35,954 nt of DNA, from positions 1 to 35,954 of the IMG/VR virus record IMGVR_UViG_3300037991_002725, one strand, 5' to 3'. The position numbers and the translations under genes were made by a program. This document shows, one piece after another, positions 3,333 through 21,033 of this stretch. Position 1 is the stretch's first letter. Each line of letters opens with the position of its first letter. This DNA is from a virus (lineage: Duplodnaviria > Caudoviricetes). The notes beneath the pieces were generated by a model. The model was given only the letters and a program-made list of their open reading frames with translations, was not told where the DNA came from and did no database searches.

Positions 3333-4031
3333 CTATGCTAACCACTTAGCCCATGCAACTGCTTTACCTAGTCCTGATGCTAAACCTAGTCCACTCTGCG
3401 GTGGGGTGTATGTTGGTTGGCCTGTTGCGGGGTCAATCCAATATGGATTGTTCATACTGTCATATCCCGAAGGAGGAACAGGATATCCTGATTGGTTATT
3501 GAAAGCCATTTGTTGTTGCATTAGAGTATTATTCATACCTACTGCCATATTTCCACCTTGTATCTGTGAAGGGTCTAGTCCCTGTGGATTCATACCCATT
3601 GGAGTTGTTGTGGGTTGTGGTTGAGAAGGAGAAGAGAATCCTTGTGCCTCAAGATATTGTTGTTTAGCCATTCTTCTCTGCATAACAACTTCACTGTTGA
3701 TAGCAGTAGCCAAAAGATTAGCCAAATCTAAATCAATGTTTTCTTGAGTTATTGATGTAAACTCATTGAGTGCTTCGGGAGCGATTGTTAGATTACCGCT
3801 TGAACTCTGATTGAACTCTAACTTAGTTAACATCTGACTTACAGAGCGTGTTACTACATCTTCAATTAACTTCTCCAAAGCACCCAAAAATGCTTCTCCA
3901 TGATACTGAAAGAAATCCTCTACATGATTCTCTTGTAGTGTTAGTAAGTTGTTCATTGCTTTGAAATTACTTTGTTGTTGACCCTGTATTTGGGTTGACA
4001 ACGAACTGTTGCTTGTTCCGAATAGTCCCAT
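3333..4031 (-). CDS. Gln/Pro-rich protein with helical core and C-terminal amphipathic helix
   Basis: Starts MGLFGTS, helical middle, Q/P/M-rich low-complexity tail, ends GLGLASGLGKAVAWAKWLA. TAATG overlap with the upstream gene. Confidence 0.85.
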   Translation of the reverse strand: MGLFGTSNSSLSTQIQGQQQSNFKAMNNLLTLQENHVEDFFQYHGEAFLGALEKLIEDVVTRSVSQMLTKLEFNQSSSGNLTIAPEALNEFTSITQENIDLDLANLLATAINSEVVMQRRMAKQQYLEAQGFSSPSQPQPTTTPMGMNPQGLDPSQIQGGNMAVGMNNTLMQQQMAFNNQSGYPVPPSGYDSMNNPYWIDPATGQPTYTPPQSGLGLASGLGKAVAWAKWLA

Positions 4032-4705
4032 TATTCTACATCCTCCTCGTCTTGTGCTGATGATACCCTAGTGCCTTCGGCTAATAGTGTTTTCATCCTA
4101 CTATTGATTCCATTGGTTTCTATGATTAATCTGAACAACTCTTCTTCTTTAGTTTCTACTAAAGCAACAGGGGGTTTGATAGTCCAACCCAATGATGTTA
4201 GAGAAGTAATGTCTTCTTGTTTTAGACCAGTCATAGGGCCACTTGCTAAAGGATTCAAACTTCTTGCAGATGGGATGTAAGCACTAAAAGAAAGACCATG
4301 TTCTTCTGCAAGCATTTGTTGTTCTAACATCTCATATTGTCTGTGTATCTGAGCGTGTTTCTCACAGTATGTTCCTCTCATTGGATATCCTTTACGCACT
4401 TTATGTAAAGGAAGAGGTGGCCTCATTGAATCCCCTGCTTCCCAATTCTTTTGTGTTCCACATACTACACATCTATCTTTTATGTTGTATTTGAAACCGT
4501 ATCTTATTCCTAACAGTTTTTTCTTTTCAGGCATAAGCACTTTGATAATTTCTTTCAATTGTTTTTTCGGCTTGACGCTTTTATACTCATAAAGCATGAC
4601 TGAACCTGCTGCTCTTGCAGCAGAAAGTCTGTCAAGAAATGGGTTCATTCCTGTATTTGCTGACTGTGCGCCAATTAAACTGGGTGGCTGAAATTGCATA
4701 GACAT
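4031..4705 (-). CDS. Zinc-finger protein, ArfGAP-like motif
   Basis: CVVCG..W..(x31 spacer)..CEKHAQIHR versus ArfGAP C-x2-C-x16-C-x2-C-x4-R (CxxCSGIHR). Directly downstream of the GTPase. The CDS is solid; the GAP call is tentative. Confidence 0.55.
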   Translation of the reverse strand: MSMQFQPPSLIGAQSANTGMNPFLDRLSAARAAGSVMLYEYKSVKPKKQLKEIIKVLMPEKKKLLGIRYGFKYNIKDRCVVCGTQKNWEAGDSMRPPLPLHKVRKGYPMRGTYCEKHAQIHRQYEMLEQQMLAEEHGLSFSAYIPSARSLNPLASGPMTGLKQEDITSLTSLGWTIKPPVALVETKEEELFRLIIETNGINSRMKTLLAEGTRVSSAQDEEDVE

Positions 4706-4717
4706 ATCATCTCTCCC

Positions 4718-5389
4718 TCAGTAGTCCTTTATGATTGTTAGGATTCCTCTATATACCATTTCTGAATCAGATTTAGCACTTACAATGTATTTGTGACAGG
4801 GTATTCCTTTATCATTTAACTTCTGCATACCGGGTTTGAATGACTCAAATATAGGGTGCTTATCCATATCTCCATTGTAGTCATATTTGTCTTTCCATAA
4901 GTCATATTTGTTAGCCCAAATAGATACTGCTATTGGATAATCATGGGGCTTCTTTTTCTTTTTTTTACCGTTCAAGTTCCAATGAGATGAACAAATAGTA
5001 TCAACTAAAAATGTCCAACATAGTTGTTGTTCTATATCGTAGTGCTTATCCATATGTCTATCATCTATCATGAAAATAATATATTTCACATGACGACCAC
5101 GCATATCTTCTAGCCATTCATTCCAGTAAACAGTTTCTCCACCAACATCAGCAGTTTTTACAGTATGAGCATCACCGTCAAGTTTCACATATTTTCTTGT
5201 GGCTCGATGTAAACCAACTGTTCTATCTGTAATAGAAGGGACTTCTCCTCTTGTTCTCAACTGATGGTGTAATGTTGTTTTACCTACCTTGCTTGCACCA
5301 TACACACCAAACGGTATAGAGTGAAGACGTTGATACATCTTGTTCATAGCCTCAACTATGAGTATTGCAAAGCCCGTCATCACGGACAT
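4718..5389 (-). CDS. Small Ras-superfamily GTPase, Arf/Sar-like
   Basis: G1 GASKVGKT, G2 RTVG, G3 DVGG, G4 NKYD, G5 SAK; hydrophobic/amphipathic N-terminal extension; polybasic insert GKKKKKK. Confidence 0.92.
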   Translation of the reverse strand: MSVMTGFAILIVEAMNKMYQRLHSIPFGVYGASKVGKTTLHHQLRTRGEVPSITDRTVGLHRATRKYVKLDGDAHTVKTADVGGETVYWNEWLEDMRGRHVKYIIFMIDDRHMDKHYDIEQQLCWTFLVDTICSSHWNLNGKKKKKKPHDYPIAVSIWANKYDLWKDKYDYNGDMDKHPIFESFKPGMQKLNDKGIPCHKYIVSAKSDSEMVYRGILTIIKDY

Positions 5390-5395
5390 TAGGCT

Positions 5396-5623
5396 CTACC
5401 CCCATAGATGATTCCAAAAAGAGACAAACCCATCCCAAAAGATAGAGTATAGATTAACACCGAACAACGGCAAAGCATGACCTATTAGAAAAGTTCCTAC
5501 TGAAACTGCTGCACCCCAAATGTAGAACCTTGCTCTTAGAAACCAAATATCAGCAGAATGCGCTCTTTGTAGGTCATATGCTAATGTGGATTCATCGAAT
5601 CCCATTAGGATTTCTCCGACCAT
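5396..5623 (-). CDS. Small membrane protein (75 aa)
   Basis: Hydrophobic FYIWGAAVSVGTFLIGHALPLFGV followed by an aromatic amphipathic tail; SD GAGGG upstream. Confidence 0.8.
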   Translation of the reverse strand: MVGEILMGFDESTLAYDLQRAHSADIWFLRARFYIWGAAVSVGTFLIGHALPLFGVNLYSIFWDGFVSFWNHLWG

Positions 5624-5632
5624 ATTCTACCC

Positions 5633-6046
5633 TCACTCTTGAAATTGTGTTAAGAAAGTAGGGCTTAGAGTGTTGTCGCTTACTGGTTGAACTACAACAT
5701 TTTGTTGCATTTGTTGTTGATTCTGATAGTATGCCTGTTGGAACTGAACTAAGGATTCTCTTACCCTCTTTCTGTTTTCTTCGTCATTTGCCTTTCTATT
5801 CCAATAAGCATCTATTCTTCGTTTTAGTAAGAACTCTTCAATGAAATCGTTGGCAATCAAATCTAATATTACTTTCAATATCATTATCCCACCAACAGTG
5901 CTAACTCCAAATAACACTGCATGGGCTACTCCGCTATATGGGAAGGAAGTTCCCACTAAGGCGTATACGTAAATGTTCAATCCACTTACTGCTCCAACAA
6001 AGAGCATGGTCATTATTAGTCTTGTATCTGTATCTATAACTGGCAA
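5633..6046 (-). CDS. Two-TM membrane protein with coiled-coil/Gln-rich tail
   Basis: Two hydrophobic segments (LIMTMLFVGAVSGLNIYVYALV; VAHAVLFGVSTVGGIMILKVIL). Probable TTG start at 6046 behind GGAG, just after the upstream stop. Confidence 0.8.
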   Translation of the reverse strand: MPVIDTDTRLIMTMLFVGAVSGLNIYVYALVGTSFPYSGVAHAVLFGVSTVGGIMILKVILDLIANDFIEEFLLKRRIDAYWNRKANDEENRKRVRESLVQFQQAYYQNQQQMQQNVVVQPVSDNTLSPTFLTQFQE

Positions 6047-6050
6047 GCAA

Positions 6051-6335
6051 TCAACTCCATGTGCAAGAGTATGCTCCCCCTGAACCACTCAATATAGCCG
6101 TAATACCTGTTCCCATTGCTCTCCCATGCATATCGAACTCAGTTGTTGTATTAGCGGTTAGAATTAGACGTGCGACCTCATCAGCAGAACCAACACTTGT
6201 GCTATCGTGGTCGTATATTTTTAGAGTTGCAGTTCCAGTAGAAGTAAAATGAACACTGTTCAACTTACAGTTACCTACATTCAATACTGCACTAGCGGTT
6301 CTGACTGGACTACCCGCTACTCCACCTACCATCAT
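6051..6335 (-). CDS. Small beta-rich virion-type protein
   Basis: 94 aa, G/T/S-rich with alternating beta pattern; second gene after MCP; ATGA overlap. Confidence 0.7.
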   Translation of the reverse strand: MMVGGVAGSPVRTASAVLNVGNCKLNSVHFTSTGTATLKIYDHDSTSVGSADEVARLILTANTTTEFDMHGRAMGTGITAILSGSGGAYSCTWS

Positions 6336-9535: not shown

Positions 9536-12127
9536 TTACTCTTTTTTATCCGAAGGGAAGGGTAATTGAGCATAAGAATCTTCATTCAGATTCCATTTAT
9601 TTGGGTTCTCTTCATCGTCTAACATTTCTTGTTTCTTTCCTGTCCATGCTATCCAACTCTTTTGTTCATCTAATGGAACTACTCTAAAGTGCATTCTCGT
9701 TTGAAACTTATCTCCATCTAATCTATATTCATGGTATCCATCTTTTTGAATACCTAATTCTATACTGCCTTTATCCAAGACTTTCTTAGATTCACCTGCA
9801 TTCTTCATTACAATAGCCGGATACTTACCTGACTTACCAAACAATTCGTATATGTCTTCTGACTCTTCAATATCAATAGTCCAACCCATACGCTCGTCTT
9901 TGTATTCTATGATTAAATCTACATTATCATCTTCTCTAAGATTAATTGTATACTTACCTGTTTCTTCCTTTTGTAACTCTTCAACATCTTTTTCCAGTAT
10001 ATCTTCTCTTGCAGTAAACTTGTTAGGATGAAGATAAACTAAATCTTCTTGTTGTTTCATCCAAGACATTAACCTTCCTTCATCAGAGTCGAATAGGTCT
10101 TGAAAAGTTCCTTGATGTTTGTCCTTAACATAATCTAATATCTGTTCAAACCTTAGATTATCTCTACCACTCTCTAATATTTCATTACGAATAGCCAATC
10201 TAAAGGTAGAACGTTTCCCTTTCATTATACTAACTACTTGCTCTTTCCACAGGTCTATGTTGTATAGAGCATTCTTTTGCATAAGAGAATCTCCTTCAAA
10301 ACCATAGATTGTGAAACCATCCATATCCTCTTTTAGAATAATCTCAGCAGTTCCATGTATGTGGTCTGTAATGTAATATCCTTTCTTCACATCTTTCTTT
10401 TTCTGACCTCTTGGGTTCTGTAATCCTGATGTAACTTCAAACATCCCACCTACCTTATCTCCGAATGTATATCCAATTGCATTAAGAGATTTCTTTGTCT
10501 TACTTGCTAGTTGCTCTAATGTTTCAACCGTATCTGATTGAGTTACTTCGGGTATCTCTATAACTTTAGCAGAAAATAGTTTGAACCCATCTTTACCTTT
10601 CTTAACTTCATCAACCTTTACTCTAACAATACTACCAATCTTTACTGATTGTTTTGTGTTGAGAGCCTTACCCACTTCTAAGTAGTCTTTATCTTCAAAC
10701 TCAACAGTCTTGTAGTTCCTCGCAGTTTCAGCATTAACTGGCCCAACTCCCATTGTGTAGGAATGTAGATTGCTCTTTGTCTTCTTATCATCCAACACTA
10801 TAACATCCAAGTCCACGAACTTTTTCCACTTAATCCACTTAGGATTTTTCTTAACCCCAATATAGTAAGTTGATTCTATATCTTTGATTACCACACCTTC
10901 TGATGCAGGTAACTGCATTATTTCTTTAGCATAGGATTCTACTTCTTTTATGGAATCAGCGATTCTTGTATCCTTCTTAGATGGGAATGCTAAGTCCTCA
11001 GACGAATGTTGAGCATACTGATACAAAAGAATATTATTTCTTTCTCGTAGAGTTTCATCAGCAATGTTCTTTCCTTCATGAACCATAATATCAAAGACGT
11101 GTGCTTTTAGTTCACCACCTTTTTTATTCTTGAAAACATGGGCTATTGTATCTGCTCTATGTAATGGCTCATCACCATCAAACAACATGAGTTCCCCATC
11201 TAATATACAATCATTGAACATTTTCTTTTCCAAGTGTTTTACTTGTTTTGGACACTTATCTGTAATGTCCTTTTCATTGAAAGAGTATATTCTGACTTTA
11301 CCATTGAACTTGTGAAGTTGTATTCTCATACCATCATATTTTTCTTGAACAATGTATTCACCAGTAAGACCTTTGATTTCTTTCATATCATCTATCTCAA
11401 AGATTCTATACATTGGTTTGTTGGGAACGATAAAGTCAATTTCTTGTTTTTGTTCACTCTTTGCAATATCTAACTCAACGAGATTATCCCACTTATCCTC
11501 ATCATACTGAGAAGCATACACCTTCTCCAATAATTTGTAAGCCCCCTTGAACTTACTTTCTACTCTTCTTGTATCTTCCTCTTCTCCACCATAATGTTCT
11601 ATGATGTATAATGGAATGTCCTTTGGTTCTAAATCCAAACCCATTACATTCTGAGTTATTTTATCGGGTTTGAGTTCTACCGCTTTCCATGCCTTTTCAG
11701 GTAAAGCATTTGCATGAGAGCGTAGTGCATAATGAATAAAATAAGCAAACAGTGCTTCATTCTTCAACAACTTAGGTATTACATCATCACCAAGTTGTTT
11801 TGAAAACGGGTCACTGACTTTTTCGGATTTGAACCTGAGTTCTTTTACCGCTTCATACAATTCCTTTGCTTGTCTTGATTTTGGGTTGTATGCCTCATCA
11901 GATTGAGCCACGTCTTCTTTGACATAAGTTTTCAATTCATTGCTAAAATCATCAAGAGAATCTAATTGTTCTCTGATATCCTTTACTGTTTTCTTCCAAG
12001 CATCCCCATAATCATCGGGATTTTCTCTTGCTGAAAGATAGGAGTAACGAACCTTCTCAAAGAAATCTAAGACCTGTTTTGTTAGGCCACTTGTTTCTTT
12101 TTCAAACTCTAATCCTGTTTGCGGCAT
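9536..12127 (-). CDS. lig: ATP-dependent DNA ligase with long N- and C-terminal extensions
   Basis: Motif I EKYDGMR, III LDGELM, IIIa VFDIM, IV EGVVIK, V WIKWK, then an OB-like domain. Start MPQTG behind GAGGGG. Confidence 0.92.
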   Translation of the reverse strand: MPQTGLEFEKETSGLTKQVLDFFEKVRYSYLSARENPDDYGDAWKKTVKDIREQLDSLDDFSNELKTYVKEDVAQSDEAYNPKSRQAKELYEAVKELRFKSEKVSDPFSKQLGDDVIPKLLKNEALFAYFIHYALRSHANALPEKAWKAVELKPDKITQNVMGLDLEPKDIPLYIIEHYGGEEEDTRRVESKFKGAYKLLEKVYASQYDEDKWDNLVELDIAKSEQKQEIDFIVPNKPMYRIFEIDDMKEIKGLTGEYIVQEKYDGMRIQLHKFNGKVRIYSFNEKDITDKCPKQVKHLEKKMFNDCILDGELMLFDGDEPLHRADTIAHVFKNKKGGELKAHVFDIMVHEGKNIADETLRERNNILLYQYAQHSSEDLAFPSKKDTRIADSIKEVESYAKEIMQLPASEGVVIKDIESTYYIGVKKNPKWIKWKKFVDLDVIVLDDKKTKSNLHSYTMGVGPVNAETARNYKTVEFEDKDYLEVGKALNTKQSVKIGSIVRVKVDEVKKGKDGFKLFSAKVIEIPEVTQSDTVETLEQLASKTKKSLNAIGYTFGDKVGGMFEVTSGLQNPRGQKKKDVKKGYYITDHIHGTAEIILKEDMDGFTIYGFEGDSLMQKNALYNIDLWKEQVVSIMKGKRSTFRLAIRNEILESGRDNLRFEQILDYVKDKHQGTFQDLFDSDEGRLMSWMKQQEDLVYLHPNKFTAREDILEKDVEELQKEETGKYTINLREDDNVDLIIEYKDERMGWTIDIEESEDIYELFGKSGKYPAIVMKNAGESKKVLDKGSIELGIQKDGYHEYRLDGDKFQTRMHFRVVPLDEQKSWIAWTGKKQEMLDDEENPNKWNLNEDSYAQLPFPSDKKE

Positions 12128-12154
12128 CTGACCCCTCACGTCTTTCGTAGGGAT

Positions 12155-12677: not shown

Positions 12678-13022
12678 TCACTGCTTACCTTTCTTTGATG
12701 GTGGATAAACCATTTTTCTTAGTTGTGTGAATAGTGTTTCGTAGTCCTTTCTCAACTCAGAGGCAGAGGCTAGAATCTCCAAGTTCTTTTCATCAAAACC
12801 TTCTACGGTTTTACTTAGTTTCTTATCAGATTTTACTAAATCCATGTCTTTCAGTTCTTCGATTATATCTGAAAGTTGAGTCATATCCTGACCCATCATA
12901 TTTGTTGGTTGAGCCTTCTGTATGAGTTTCTTCAACTTCTTTTTCTGCTTACCATCAAGTTTCTCAATGAAGACAGGAGAGAAGTAAAATCCTTCATCTT
13001 TTAGCACATCTTGCCAACTCAT
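12678..13022 (-). CDS. Hypothetical protein with N-terminal W tag
   Basis: Starts MSWQDVLK; ATGA overlap. Confidence 0.85.
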   Translation of the reverse strand: MSWQDVLKDEGFYFSPVFIEKLDGKQKKKLKKLIQKAQPTNMMGQDMTQLSDIIEELKDMDLVKSDKKLSKTVEGFDEKNLEILASASELRKDYETLFTQLRKMVYPPSKKGKQ

Positions 13023-17518: not shown

Positions 17519-17775
17519 AATCCCTCAACCCTCCTGTATTTTTTCTTAGCGGATTTACCTCTTGGAACGTGTTGCTTTCCTTGCTTTGTTCCTTTTCTTT
17601 TCTTACGATTCTCATATGCTTTTTCAGAAGGTGTCAAAGAATCCCGAACTGCTTTTGGAGCATATCTCCCTTTCTTTTTTGATTTGGGTGAGATGTATCC
17701 CCAATCTTCTCTTGTCCATTCAGAGAGTGCTTTTTGCCTTTTTGATTTGGCTTTTAATATTTCAAACCAAGTCAT
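17515..17775 (-). CDS. Small basic protein (DUF5872-like C-half) with W tag
   Basis: MTWFEILK, then LSEWTREDW..RYAPK..NRKKRKG..GKQHV. Family name from recall. Confidence 0.75.
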   Translation of the reverse strand: MTWFEILKAKSKRQKALSEWTREDWGYISPKSKKKGRYAPKAVRDSLTPSEKAYENRKKRKGTKQGKQHVPRGKSAKKKYRRVEGL

Positions 17776-19100
17776 GCAATCACCCCTTCAATAACATCCA
17801 TTGCACCCATCTTACAATTGTCATGTAACTTGGCAACAGTATCAATGTCAATATCATATCGTGTGAAATCATAACCTACATGGTCTTTGTGATTCTCATA
17901 TTTCATCAACTTGAAGAGTTCTTCTCTCCTTTCATTATACCAATCAGCCTTCTTATGTGATTTCTTCATCCTGATTAACTCTAACAGAATATCAGCATTC
18001 TTACCTTTCATTCTGAAATGTGGCCTACATTTTGTAAGTAGTTCAACAACATCATCACCTGAGTAAAAGTTCAACCTGTTTACTGGTCTTGTATCCTGTG
18101 GGGATTTTTGGTCGAGATGTAATCTACCGCACCCTAATGACTTGTGCATCTCCATCATGAAAGCCTTACCTCTTTCTCCTGTTGCAACTAAACCGACTCT
18201 TGGATTGTAATTCTTATCCATTGTAATGTAGCCATCTGAGTCAATAAATGCAGCAGTATAAGCATAGATATCTTTCTTTATCTCATCACTAAACTTGTAG
18301 AAAGCACCGTTAACGGTGGTGATGTTTTCTTGTTTAGCCATTTTTGCAATTACGTTTGGAGTTGTTTTTGTAAAGAGATTCTTTGGTAGCCTTTCATGTA
18401 TCTGCCTTGCAGATATTCCGGGTTCTTCACATATAGATTTTAGAATGTGATGTTTAATTTTATCCTTTGGAGAAGTAGTTTTCATATGCTTCTTCAACAA
18501 TCTTTTGAATTGTCTCTTTGTGTTAGTCATCTCCTTTGTCAATCTTGAGTAATCAGAATTGAAAGGCATATCCTCCTTCTCTATTTTTGCTTCCCAATAT
18601 TTACAGAGAGTATCAATTAGTTCTCGCCTTGTAGTTGCATCGTCAACATATGATAGTTTGATTAGATTATCTTCCGAGCAAGTCATGTCTTTGAGAACTG
18701 GTTTGTATTTACTAATCCAGTAAATGTTATCCATGCTTCTATCCAAGTGGTCAGAATATGCCTTGATTAAATTCTCAATTGAATTGGTAATCTTTACCTT
18801 GTCCTCTCCTTTGAGAGTCCTTCTATATTTTTTTAGTTCCTTTATGGTCTTTGGGATATCAGAACCTTCAATTTCATACTTAGTCAAAGTATACTTCAAT
18901 TCCTTTCTTGCATCAGATAAACTCATTCTGAAATCTTCTGCGTATTTCTTTTCCAAAATACTGTGGTCTTCTATTGGAACATTCGATAGCCAAGAACGTT
19001 TCAAGTCTTTAGTGCGTTCCTCGATTTCTTCTTCTAAAGTCTCCTTTCGCTTTGTTTGCTCAAGAACTTCTTCTAAGATTTCACTATCTTTCTCCGCCAC
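17772..19100 (-). CDS. LAGLIDADG endonuclease-domain protein with N-terminal helical and HTH regions
   Basis: YAYTAAFIDSDGYI motif, then a typical single-motif LAGLIDADG body (LGCGRL, PHFRMKGKNA); wHTH-like ILKSICEEPGISARQIHERL; GTG start. Confidence 0.85.
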   Translation of the reverse strand: MAEKDSEILEEVLEQTKRKETLEEEIEERTKDLKRSWLSNVPIEDHSILEKKYAEDFRMSLSDARKELKYTLTKYEIEGSDIPKTIKELKKYRRTLKGEDKVKITNSIENLIKAYSDHLDRSMDNIYWISKYKPVLKDMTCSEDNLIKLSYVDDATTRRELIDTLCKYWEAKIEKEDMPFNSDYSRLTKEMTNTKRQFKRLLKKHMKTTSPKDKIKHHILKSICEEPGISARQIHERLPKNLFTKTTPNVIAKMAKQENITTVNGAFYKFSDEIKKDIYAYTAAFIDSDGYITMDKNYNPRVGLVATGERGKAFMMEMHKSLGCGRLHLDQKSPQDTRPVNRLNFYSGDDVVELLTKCRPHFRMKGKNADILLELIRMKKSHKKADWYNERREELFKLMKYENHKDHVGYDFTRYDIDIDTVAKLHDNCKMGAMDVIEGVIA

Positions 19101-19112
19101 GCACCTACCCCC

Positions 19113-20546
19113 CTAAAAGTTCAGCCCCATCATTCCGCCTAAAGACCTGTTCATTGGCTTAGGTTCATCAAATATTCCCATATCATCCAACAACATGAAC
19201 ACATCTGATGTCTTTGTAGCACAAGCCACTGCTAATGCTAAACTCATAACTAAGTCGTCATGCGCCCCTACACCCTCAAACTTTCCGGCAGTGGTAATAG
19301 AGAACATAGACAGTTCTTCTATCAACGCATTGGTCAGTCTTCTACTCGCATTATCACCATATGGAAAATTTATTTTTCCGTTTTCTATATTCATTTGAAG
19401 ACTCAGAATTATTTCCTGTTTCTTTTTTCTTGTAGTTGTAAAATCTCTAACATTCAAGTCAGATATGTTTCGTAGTTCCTGTGTAAATGCCTTTGCGAAA
19501 GTGTTGGTTTCATAGAGAACTTCTTCGGGTTCAAAGATTTTACCAATCAATCTAATCTTCTCTATGTTCTCTCTGAAATCTACATTCTTAGCCCTGTCCA
19601 CATGGACTATGGTTTTGTTTTTATTTTCATCAACTTCCAAAACCGTGATTACGTTGTAGTCTCCATCTGTTGAGATAGCAGGGTCAACTCCCACATAATA
19701 CTTGTAGCCCTTTTCCTTACGGTGTCCAAGTTTCAGAACGTAATCTTTGTTCTTACATTTCTCTATGAACTCAGGATTGAATAGAGCAGTTCCAGTAGAT
19801 ATAGGAACACAAAGATATTCTCTTGTAAACTTGAGAGAACCTATCTCTGCTTTTCTTTTCATTAGTGCGTCATAGTCCCAACGCTCAGGCCAAAGTGGTT
19901 CATTCAAAGAGTTTAGACATGGGTACTTCTGAACAGAATATGCTTCATTCTCCTCTAACTGAGCAAAAATATCCGTGTAGGTAAACGGAGTTCCAATCAT
20001 TCTCAACTTAGATGTATGATGAAGTGTTGGTATCATATCCCCGAAGAACCAATCTGTAACTCGTTGAATACCTGCAAGGCTAAACTCCTTCAAAGGGTCG
20101 TCAATGATAATCTCCTGTGGGTGAAGTCCTCTGATTTGAGAACCAACGGAACGCTCCAAGATAGCGTTACCGTTTGTTAACTGAATATTACCAATAGCCC
20201 AACCCCTACTGGGTTTGTATTTCTTAAGAGCAGGGTGGTTGAAGTATCTGTCAATTTCTCTCATGTGAACAAGAGTCTGCTTTTGGTTAGAAGAAATGTA
20301 AAGCATTTGATATGGTGGTTCTTGAAACACAAGATTCCATACTACCCAACTGTGCATAAAAACAGATTTTCCGTGGTCACGACTACAAACAATAACGGTT
20401 CTATCTGTTTTTTCCATTGAGTCTAACCATTCTTGCATATACGGAGGAAACATCATTCCAAGAACATTCTGAAAAAAATATGGAAATGAAGTTTTAGATA
20501 GTTCCATATCCATTGCTGAAACAAAATCTAAATCATCTAATTCCAT
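19113..20546 (-). CDS. terL: Terminase large subunit
   Basis: Walker A SRDHGKS, Walker B IIIDD, motif C GTP, nuclease GVDPA and HDDLVMSLALA. Confidence 0.95.
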   Translation of the reverse strand: MELDDLDFVSAMDMELSKTSFPYFFQNVLGMMFPPYMQEWLDSMEKTDRTVIVCSRDHGKSVFMHSWVVWNLVFQEPPYQMLYISSNQKQTLVHMREIDRYFNHPALKKYKPSRGWAIGNIQLTNGNAILERSVGSQIRGLHPQEIIIDDPLKEFSLAGIQRVTDWFFGDMIPTLHHTSKLRMIGTPFTYTDIFAQLEENEAYSVQKYPCLNSLNEPLWPERWDYDALMKRKAEIGSLKFTREYLCVPISTGTALFNPEFIEKCKNKDYVLKLGHRKEKGYKYYVGVDPAISTDGDYNVITVLEVDENKNKTIVHVDRAKNVDFRENIEKIRLIGKIFEPEEVLYETNTFAKAFTQELRNISDLNVRDFTTTRKKKQEIILSLQMNIENGKINFPYGDNASRRLTNALIEELSMFSITTAGKFEGVGAHDDLVMSLALAVACATKTSDVFMLLDDMGIFDEPKPMNRSLGGMMGLNF

Positions 20547-21033
20547 TTTTCACCACGTCAAACCAAACATCTCGATGAACTCCCCAAACCCATTTCTGAA
20601 CTTGGTCTGCGAACTCTAATCCCCGAATAGCATTTCTTGAGTCATCGGGTAACTCTTCTTCATTCATATCTTTGAACCCATATCTTCTGTATGTGTTAGC
20701 AATTCTTGGATTAGCAATATTAGCAAAAAGAGTTTGGCCTCCTTTCTCCTCTATGAGTTTTTGAACTAGTAATTGTGCTAACCCTCTACCTCTAAATCCT
20801 CTTCTAACGTGAATACCTGCTCCCAAAAGAACTCCTTTGTATGGAGCAAAACCAATAACTCCTACTGGTTTATCTTCTAAAAAACCCACAAACATTCTTG
20901 CAGGTGCAGTAGCCCAAGATGAATTAGGGGATATCCTTTGATAACGCTCTCTTCTTTTTTTGTATTCATAGTACCCATCTTCTAAGAATACTCTAACGGC
21001 ATCATCTTCAGACATCTCTTGAAACTCTAACAT
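20533..21033 (-). CDS. GNAT-family acetyltransferase
   Basis: Motif A IHVRRGFRGRGLA, motif B N..IANTYRRYGF; ends VWFDVVK. Confidence 0.85.
   Translation of the reverse strand: MLEFQEMSEDDAVRVFLEDGYYEYKKRRERYQRISPNSSWATAPARMFVGFLEDKPVGVIGFAPYKGVLLGAGIHVRRGFRGRGLAQLLVQKLIEEKGGQTLFANIANPRIANTYRRYGFKDMNEEELPDDSRNAIRGLEFADQVQKWVWGVHRDVWFDVVKNGIR

Follow-up and report, generated by a model that had tools for sequence, protein, structure and literature searches.

Magroviruses infect abundant archaea of the ocean and rank high in number among the tailed viruses of archaea, a group whose way of opening the host cell has yet to be explained. In this work we focused on a small GTPase gene of one magrovirus, for which the original prediction had proposed Arf-type signatures, membrane targeting without myristoylation and a role as a timer. 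The locus raises two questions: whether the protein belongs to the Arf family, and what it may do for the virus. Naming it an Arf, or taking its Glu for a timer mark, would misdirect experiments.

The virus and its GTPase gene

The whole stretch of DNA analysed (the window, 36 kb) is a fragment of a group B magrovirus, 37% complete and without PolB. Its capsid, protease, portal and terminase genes all lie on the minus strand. The capsid protein is closest to those of haloviruses, the nearest being those of HCTV and HVTV with 23-24% identity. A ligase gene within the head module and a homing endonuclease gene ahead of the terminase gene (Table 1) are traits of magrovirus groups A and B, according to a part of PMC5434244. 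The split PolB that marks group B1 is present in 3/3 complete relatives of the window virus. The ligase in the head module, the endonuclease, the halovirus-like capsid and, in the relatives, the split PolB place the virus in Magrovirales group B, the Aoguangviridae; group A bears the ICTV name Apasviridae (PMC12999244). A second viral clade carries a chaperonin, the mark of group A, in 4/4 records, and we read this chaperonin as thermosome-type.

Table 1. Features of the window, with positions counted from its first nucleotide
Feature	Position	Strand	Remarks
ATP-dependent DNA ligase beside prohead protease, inside head module, and homing-endonuclease-like gene before terminase	9536-12139 and 17772-19100		Magrovirus A/B hallmarks
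Gene A	5633..6088	-	Two predicted transmembrane segments and a helical tail with charged residues; homologues begin near 6046, the likely true start
Gene B	5396..5623	-	75 aa; near-invariant soluble N-terminal segment, a single transmembrane segment (predicted), C-terminus amphipathic and rich in Trp
Gene G, small P-loop GTPase	4718..5389	-	223 aa; translation, alignment, model
N-terminal helix of GTPase	5324..5389	-	Residues 1-22, predicted membrane anchor; hydrophobic 1-12, amphipathic 10-22; no Gly2
G1/P-loop GASKVGKT	5276..5299	-	Residues 31-38; without Arf-type Leu-Asp at positions 2-3
G2 RTVG	5213..5224	-	Contains Thr57; Thr to G3 Asp, 24 residues
G3 DVGGE	5135..5149	-	Residues 81-85; residue 85 varies within the family (Q, E, D or H)
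Switch II YWNEW	5114..5128	-	Residues 88-92; W92 corresponds to the distal Trp of Arfs, and W89 takes the place of their Arg
Basic loop GKKKKKK	4949..4969	-	G141 and Lys 142-147; insertion before beta-5/G4
G4 NKYD	4901..4912	-	Residues 160-163
G5 SAK	4772..4780	-	Residues 204-206
Gene D	4031..4705	-	224 aa; invariant Cys79, Cys114 and His117, likely a zinc site
Gene E	3333..4031	-	232 aa; rich in Q/N/G/M/P (39%); helical core conserved, C-terminal end invariant

A GNAT acetyltransferase gene lies immediately upstream of the terminase gene (window 20533-21033). A motif resembling W-x-(D/E/S/N)-(I/V/L/T)-L-K was counted 14 times (raw count) on the minus strand of the window, mostly at the N-termini of late ORFs (for example at positions 13016, 14821, 15345, 17313, 17512, 17769, 25947, 26093, 26641, 29143 and 29777), and it also occurs in G001 and G004. 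It is possibly a capsid-targeting or protease-cleavage signal of internal head proteins. A promoter scan with a bacterial consensus returned fewer sites than shuffled sequences did. Metatranscriptome contigs of relatives cover the capsid and protease genes; among those listed, a single 154-nt contig touches the GTPase gene, which is too little to show its expression.

Translation of the GTPase gene showed intact G1 to G5 motifs, DVGGE, YWNEW, the N-terminal helix and GKKKKKK before G4, all placed as originally described. In an AlphaFold2 model (mean pLDDT 72.6, below 50 at residues 35-38 and 46-60), residues 2-22 form one helix and residues 64-83 a beta-hairpin within a Ras-like fold, and a fold search returned Ras-like structures with Z up to 14.2 and an rmsd of 3.0-3.4 across 162-168 residues. 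There is hardly any doubt that the protein is a small P-loop GTPase (TRAFAC). Pfam gave four matches below cutoff and of equal weight, SRPRB, Roc, MMR_HSR1 and Arf. A search for homologues yielded 363 at E<=0.001, and a tblastn search with the GTPases of both viral clades found no match among 50,697 GenBank phage records. W89, W92, K146 and N160-K161-D163 are invariant in the 121 aligned group B homologues, all of which have NKxD and 120 of which have SAK. The gene is strongly conserved under purifying selection, with a median dN/dS of 0.08 (966 of 3160 pairs, those with dS of 0.1-1.5).

Arf-like signatures and family membership

The DxGG form of G3 was found in 121/121 group B and 74/79 group A proteins, and the distal Trp of switch II in 195 of the 200 viral proteins. 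DxGG is also present in 10 of the 18 nearest non-viral rows and in three other archaeal-type references, and it is therefore not diagnostic of Arf. The Arf toggle motif at the start of switch II reads aromatic-D-x-GG-Q-x3-R-x2-W. In full, this signature occurs in 0/200 viral proteins, and neither the aromatic residue before the G3 Asp (0/200) nor the switch-II Arg (0/200) was found among them. Since the references had been fetched with the toggle motif, they cannot serve to test it; the existence of such a signature is cited in a passage of PMC6724607. Leu-Asp at G1 positions 2-3, described as an Arf/ArfR trait in a section of PMC11914678, was present in 18/23 Arf references. All of the viral proteins lack it and have AT, AS or ST in group B and pairs led by P or A in group A. 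The distance from the G2 Thr to the G3 Asp is 19 residues in 24/24 Arf references, 24 in 119/121 group B proteins and 32-34 in 79/79 group A proteins, the Rab range being 23-27. Passages of PMC6724607 and PMC11914678 tie the G1 Leu-Asp, the interswitch, the aromatic residue and the switch-II Arg to the Arf toggle.

Similarity searches gave a mixed picture, with references gathered by motif scans and labelled by motif and likeness; among these references, L597 agrees with a stretch of 8OUN. The best PDB sequence match was the Asgard ArfR 8OUN, a weak one (E of 0.12 and 0.009; with the profile, 0.009 versus 0.03 for KRas). A profile of 11 ArfR/Arl references scored highest, with 31.5 bits versus 15.1 for Arf, 13.9 for Rab, 11.7 for ArvA and 2.6 for MglA. 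In the fold search, where the top matches scored Z 13.7-14.2, Arf6 and SR-beta (14.0-14.1) ranked level with G-alpha and with an Asgard GTPase of the Rag type, and Foldseek ranked G-alpha and Rab first.

Trees were built on 161 columns, with few ArfR rows and with Rag and SR-beta absent. In the first (65 of the 89 collected rows, LG+G4), a single clade (95/83) held the viral proteins together with their closest non-viral relatives and stood apart from Arf, ArfR, Rab and MglA (99/97). In the second (52 rows, mixture model, no outgroup and six long rows removed), this clade was recovered with 99/97, outside an Arf family supported by 93/78. The AU test rejected a grouping of the viral core with Arf alone (p=0.009); it did not reject the whole family and Arf as sisters (p=0.40), the viral core with ArvA (p=0.09) or the whole family with ArvA (p=0.47). 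As the nearest non-viral rows had been found with the viral profile, their grouping with the viral proteins is partly built in.

The trees put the viral GTPases together with a family that has no name and is probably prokaryotic. Its Arf-like G-domain proteins (P0154, P0169, P0180, P0186, P0196, P0198, P0201, P0202 and others) share the viral clade in both trees; they resemble the viral GTPase in DxGG or DxPG, in mostly lacking the Gln, in the switch-II Trp pattern and in a hydrophobic N-terminus, but are only 16-28% identical to it. The nearest non-viral clusters in the ESM Atlas are mostly from bacteria (0.93-0.95), ahead of Asgard archaea (0.92). No genomic context was found for the nearest non-viral rows (genome scan, A5; viral scans, P0176 and P0186; protein searches, P0169 and A4). 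A broad profile detected no orthologue in 300 sampled Pseudomonadota genomes, its only matches being two Era-like proteins and two misbinned viral contigs (centre genome).

Of the Arf-type signatures proposed at the outset, DxGG, the distal Trp and the N-terminal helix hold; membership in the Arf family does not, in view of the toggle signature, the interswitch and the trees. The protein clusters with non-Arf proteins, yet it has the N-terminal helix. We consider it very probable that the GTPase is Arf-like but outside the Arf family. The lineage that it marks resembles Arf and is relevant to the question of how often prokaryotes evolved GTP switches that bind membranes.

The residue at the catalytic Gln position was of no help to the timer proposal. 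Of the 121 group B proteins, 82 have E and 39 have Q at residue 85; in the 79 group A proteins this residue is Q in 48, E in 19, D in 11 and H in one. Quick trees require at least 4 changes in group B and at least 8 in group A, hence at least 12 overall, and viruses of both the Q and the E type have the same cassette. Glu85 was to signal a partner-dependent timer, a claim that we abandon for a site that varies so freely. Because residue 85 flips despite strong purifying selection elsewhere, it is unlikely to be catalytic in cis. Since the intrinsic hydrolysis of Arf proteins is very low even with the Gln, a Glu says nothing specific about a timer. Their Gln serves GAP-stimulated hydrolysis (a passage of PMC6724607). 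It is possible that a partner or a dimer supplies the catalytic group in the whole family. Five columns in the neighbouring proteins D, E and B track the E/Q state of the GTPase; with only four E/Q changes, these columns are inseparable from shared ancestry.

Probable membrane targeting and the five-gene cassette

The proposed non-myristoylated membrane targeting is plausible, since a hydrophobic N-terminal helix and a basic loop are kept in both viral clades, and we predict with good confidence that the GTPase is membrane-associated. The length of the helix is conserved (24-25 residues). The helix is amphipathic at residues 10-25 (moment 0.5-0.64) and uniformly hydrophobic at residues 1-12 (mean hydrophobicity 1.03, moment 0.25-0.28), the first half being unlike that of the Arf references. 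The N-terminal maximum of hydropathy over 19 residues is 1.36 in group B and 0.96 in group A, versus 0.0-0.13 in the Arf references. Since the hydrophobicity of the helix stays below what is usual for transmembrane segments and half of it is amphipathic, it may also be releasable in the manner of an Arf helix. Residue 2 is Ser and thus not the Gly2 of myristoylated proteins, which occurs in 0/118 group B and 3/79 group A rows. Before G4, the loop holds a median of 6 K+R per 20 residues in group B (range 4-10) and 8 in group A (6-9), compared with 2-4 in the references. What is conserved is the charge; the Lys run itself is strain-specific.

The GTPase gene is part of a block of five genes, A, B, G, D and E (Table 1). 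All five were present in 52/52 loci selected by capsid and having at least 4 kb downstream, after exclusion of 28 of the 80 loci as too short. Among 80 loci selected by GTPase, B was found in 80, A in 79, and D and E in 74, the remainder stopping at a contig edge. Group A has the same gene order in 67/80 loci (profile), with about 30% identity to group B; the B profile missed 13 loci, and the two of these that were inspected hold a single-helix gene of 73-74 aa at this place. HHalign between the two groups indicated homology for G (99.9%), D (96.7%) and E (93.3%), and genes A (4.8%) and B (0.9%) were matched by position and topology only. In group B the cassette has head genes on one side and neck genes on the other, and in group A it precedes the terminase region; with its order kept at a different genomic place, the block moves as a unit. 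It is very likely that the cassette and the GTPase make up one functional unit.

In Pfam and PHROGs no likeness of the cassette genes to a known holin, ESCRT or coat protein was found. A low-confidence model of D (pLDDT 61) gave no fold match at Z >=5, and a predicted complex of the GTPase and the proteins of D, E and B scored 0.00, which counts neither way. In group A (L081-L160), a sixth gene of about 82 aa with two hydrophobic segments follows E in 80/80 loci, and a short gene is often inserted between the GTPase and D genes. A genome labelled Parvibaculum (G010; L260, L265, L181) includes contigs that bear the group A cassette and a thermosome of viral type; these are probably misbinned virus.

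Incomplete genomes of the host order, the Poseidoniales, were scanned as well. The broad GTPase profile was not found in 301 of them, and Pfam Arf was not found in 101. ArvA was likewise not found in 101 genomes of this order, which is that of G008, and is present in 104/201 genomes of the phylum.

Possible role in virus exit and comparison with known systems

Exit is the simplest reading of a late and movable block that is always kept, codes for two predicted membrane proteins and belongs to lytic viruses without known lysis genes. Remodelling or breach of the membrane for virus exit is our best guess, at slightly less than even odds (about 0.45). The holins of archaeal tailed viruses are unidentified so far and holins are hard to detect by sequence, as stated in parts of PMC10791045. 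The conserved block around a small GTPase is a directly testable candidate for exit.

The GTPase would form the centre of the five-gene cassette of group A and B magroviruses and likely sit on the inner face of the host membrane. Its hydrophobic N-terminal helix would serve as a more or less permanent monotopic anchor, aided by the basic loop, a mode that recalls SR-beta or Sar1 more than a myristoyl switch. The GTP state may control assembly of A and B with D and E through the surface that bears the two invariant Trp. Hydrolysis would be independent of a Gln in cis, so that any acceleration would come from a partner or dimer. The GTPase would likely act late in infection, remodelling or breaching the membrane with the two predicted membrane proteins, and we guess that lysis or egress would be the end result. 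That the GTPase gates exit, timing and driving the assembly of two membrane proteins and a two-protein coat, is a more tentative proposal. If true, this would be the first such exit system in a prokaryotic virus and an independent parallel to membrane remodelling by Arf and coat proteins.

The position of the cassette between head and neck genes in group B suits assembly or entry equally well. A role in assembly, in which the cassette tethers prohead or tail assembly, or a replication-assembly compartment, to the host membrane and the GTPase acts as a checkpoint without lysis, is unlikely although it ranks next: in group B the cassette lies on one tightly packed strand between capsid and neck/tail genes, in group A just ahead of terminase-region genes, and E, a low-complexity protein rich in Q and G, could act as a scaffold or form condensates. 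However, tblastn of the GTPase against the haloviruses HCTV and HVTV gave no match, so closely related heads assemble without it. Less probable again is an entry module, some of whose proteins would be packaged and help the genome across the host envelope, like podovirus ejection proteins. The cassette genes do adjoin head genes, and by its language-model features E comes closest to DNA-transfer proteins of the P22 gp7 type (score 0.88; 121-129 of 256 features), a lead only, which falls below the 0.9 mark and finds no support in PHROGs. Moreover, A and B are predicted integral membrane proteins, and W-x-x-(I/V)-L-K, the presumed mark of internal head proteins, is in none of the five cassette proteins.

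A takeover of the envelope by vesiculation, the viral GTPase (absent from the host) shedding membrane, receptors or particles without lysis, seems to us improbable. ArvA, an archaeal GTPase that has an amphipathic helix at its N-terminus and a zinc protein as neighbour, drives vesicle formation (a part of PMC10927574). That it was not found in the 101 host-order genomes scanned and the unrejected trees that join it to the viral family would fit; but the likeness of ArvA to the viral GTPase extends over just 33 columns at the P-loop, its G3 is DTPG and its switch II has no Trp, and neither D nor E matches the Pfam families of arvB (DUF2073) or arvC (DUF2072). Finally, a true Arf-family switch with an interswitch toggle, made a slow partner-dependent timer by Gln-to-Glu, is very improbable: DxGG with the distal Trp (121/121 and 74/79), the best-scoring ArfR/Arl profile, the top fold matches with Arf6 and SR-beta and the unrejected sister grouping with Arf are set against an absent full signature, a longer interswitch, the missing G1 Leu-Asp, the rejected direct grouping, an Arf clade that leaves the viral family out, a residue 85 that flips within the same cassette and the tie with Rag-like GTPase and G-alpha.

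The cassette may be compared with the holin-type lysis cassettes of tailed phages. Both are late-region blocks with small one- and two-helix membrane proteins, but the magrovirus cassette has a GTPase and no endolysin or holin family match, and we know of no GTPase in known lysis cassettes.

With the Arf family (Arf/Arl/Sar1/SR-beta, and the Asgard GerdArfR1, 8OUN), as described in parts of bioRxiv 10.1101/2024.02.28.582541 and PMC11914678, the GTPase shares a small G domain, DxGG, the distal Trp, a beta-hairpin interswitch and an N-terminal helix that, like those of ArfR and Arl8, lacks Gly2. It differs in lacking the G1 Leu-Asp and the aromatic residue before G3, in the Trp that replaces the switch-II Arg, and in its variable Gln site, an interswitch longer by 5-15 residues, a more hydrophobic helix, the basic insertion before G4 and a separate long-stemmed clade. 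ArvA/ArvB/ArvC (OapABC) of Euryarchaeota share the archaeal setting, the N-terminal membrane helix and a zinc protein downstream (a part of PMC10927574), and the ArvA G1 (GxYG) is similar. ArvA is, however, cellular, with DTPG and without the Trp pair and the basic insertion, and its operon has no membrane genes and partners not detectably homologous to D and E. Derivation of the viral GTPase from ArvA was considered and found no support, the likeness being restricted to the P-loop.

We found no mention of the magrovirus GTPase in the literature, although annotation tables of magrovirus papers may list it as a GTPase; "GTP" is absent from the main text of PMC5434244, PMC10160649 and PMC11706807 and of the supplement of PMC5434244. 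Arf-like GTPases on a putative Asgard mobile region have already been published (a section of PMC11529989), as have giant-virus small GTPases. A pattern scan of giant viruses gave 61 matches, 46 of them P-loop proteins; many of the records (L321-L381) encode Arf proteins of the canonical kind with Gly2, and there is one protein that resembles Sar1 and one that resembles G-alpha. Giant-virus Arf and Rab proteins are likewise small GTPases that viruses encode and that presumably act on the membranes of their hosts, but they are canonical, eukaryotic-type and carried by viruses of eukaryotes, whereas the magrovirus GTPase belongs to a separate lineage in an archaeal tailed virus. What is new here is the placement of this protein outside the Arf family together with its variable Gln site.
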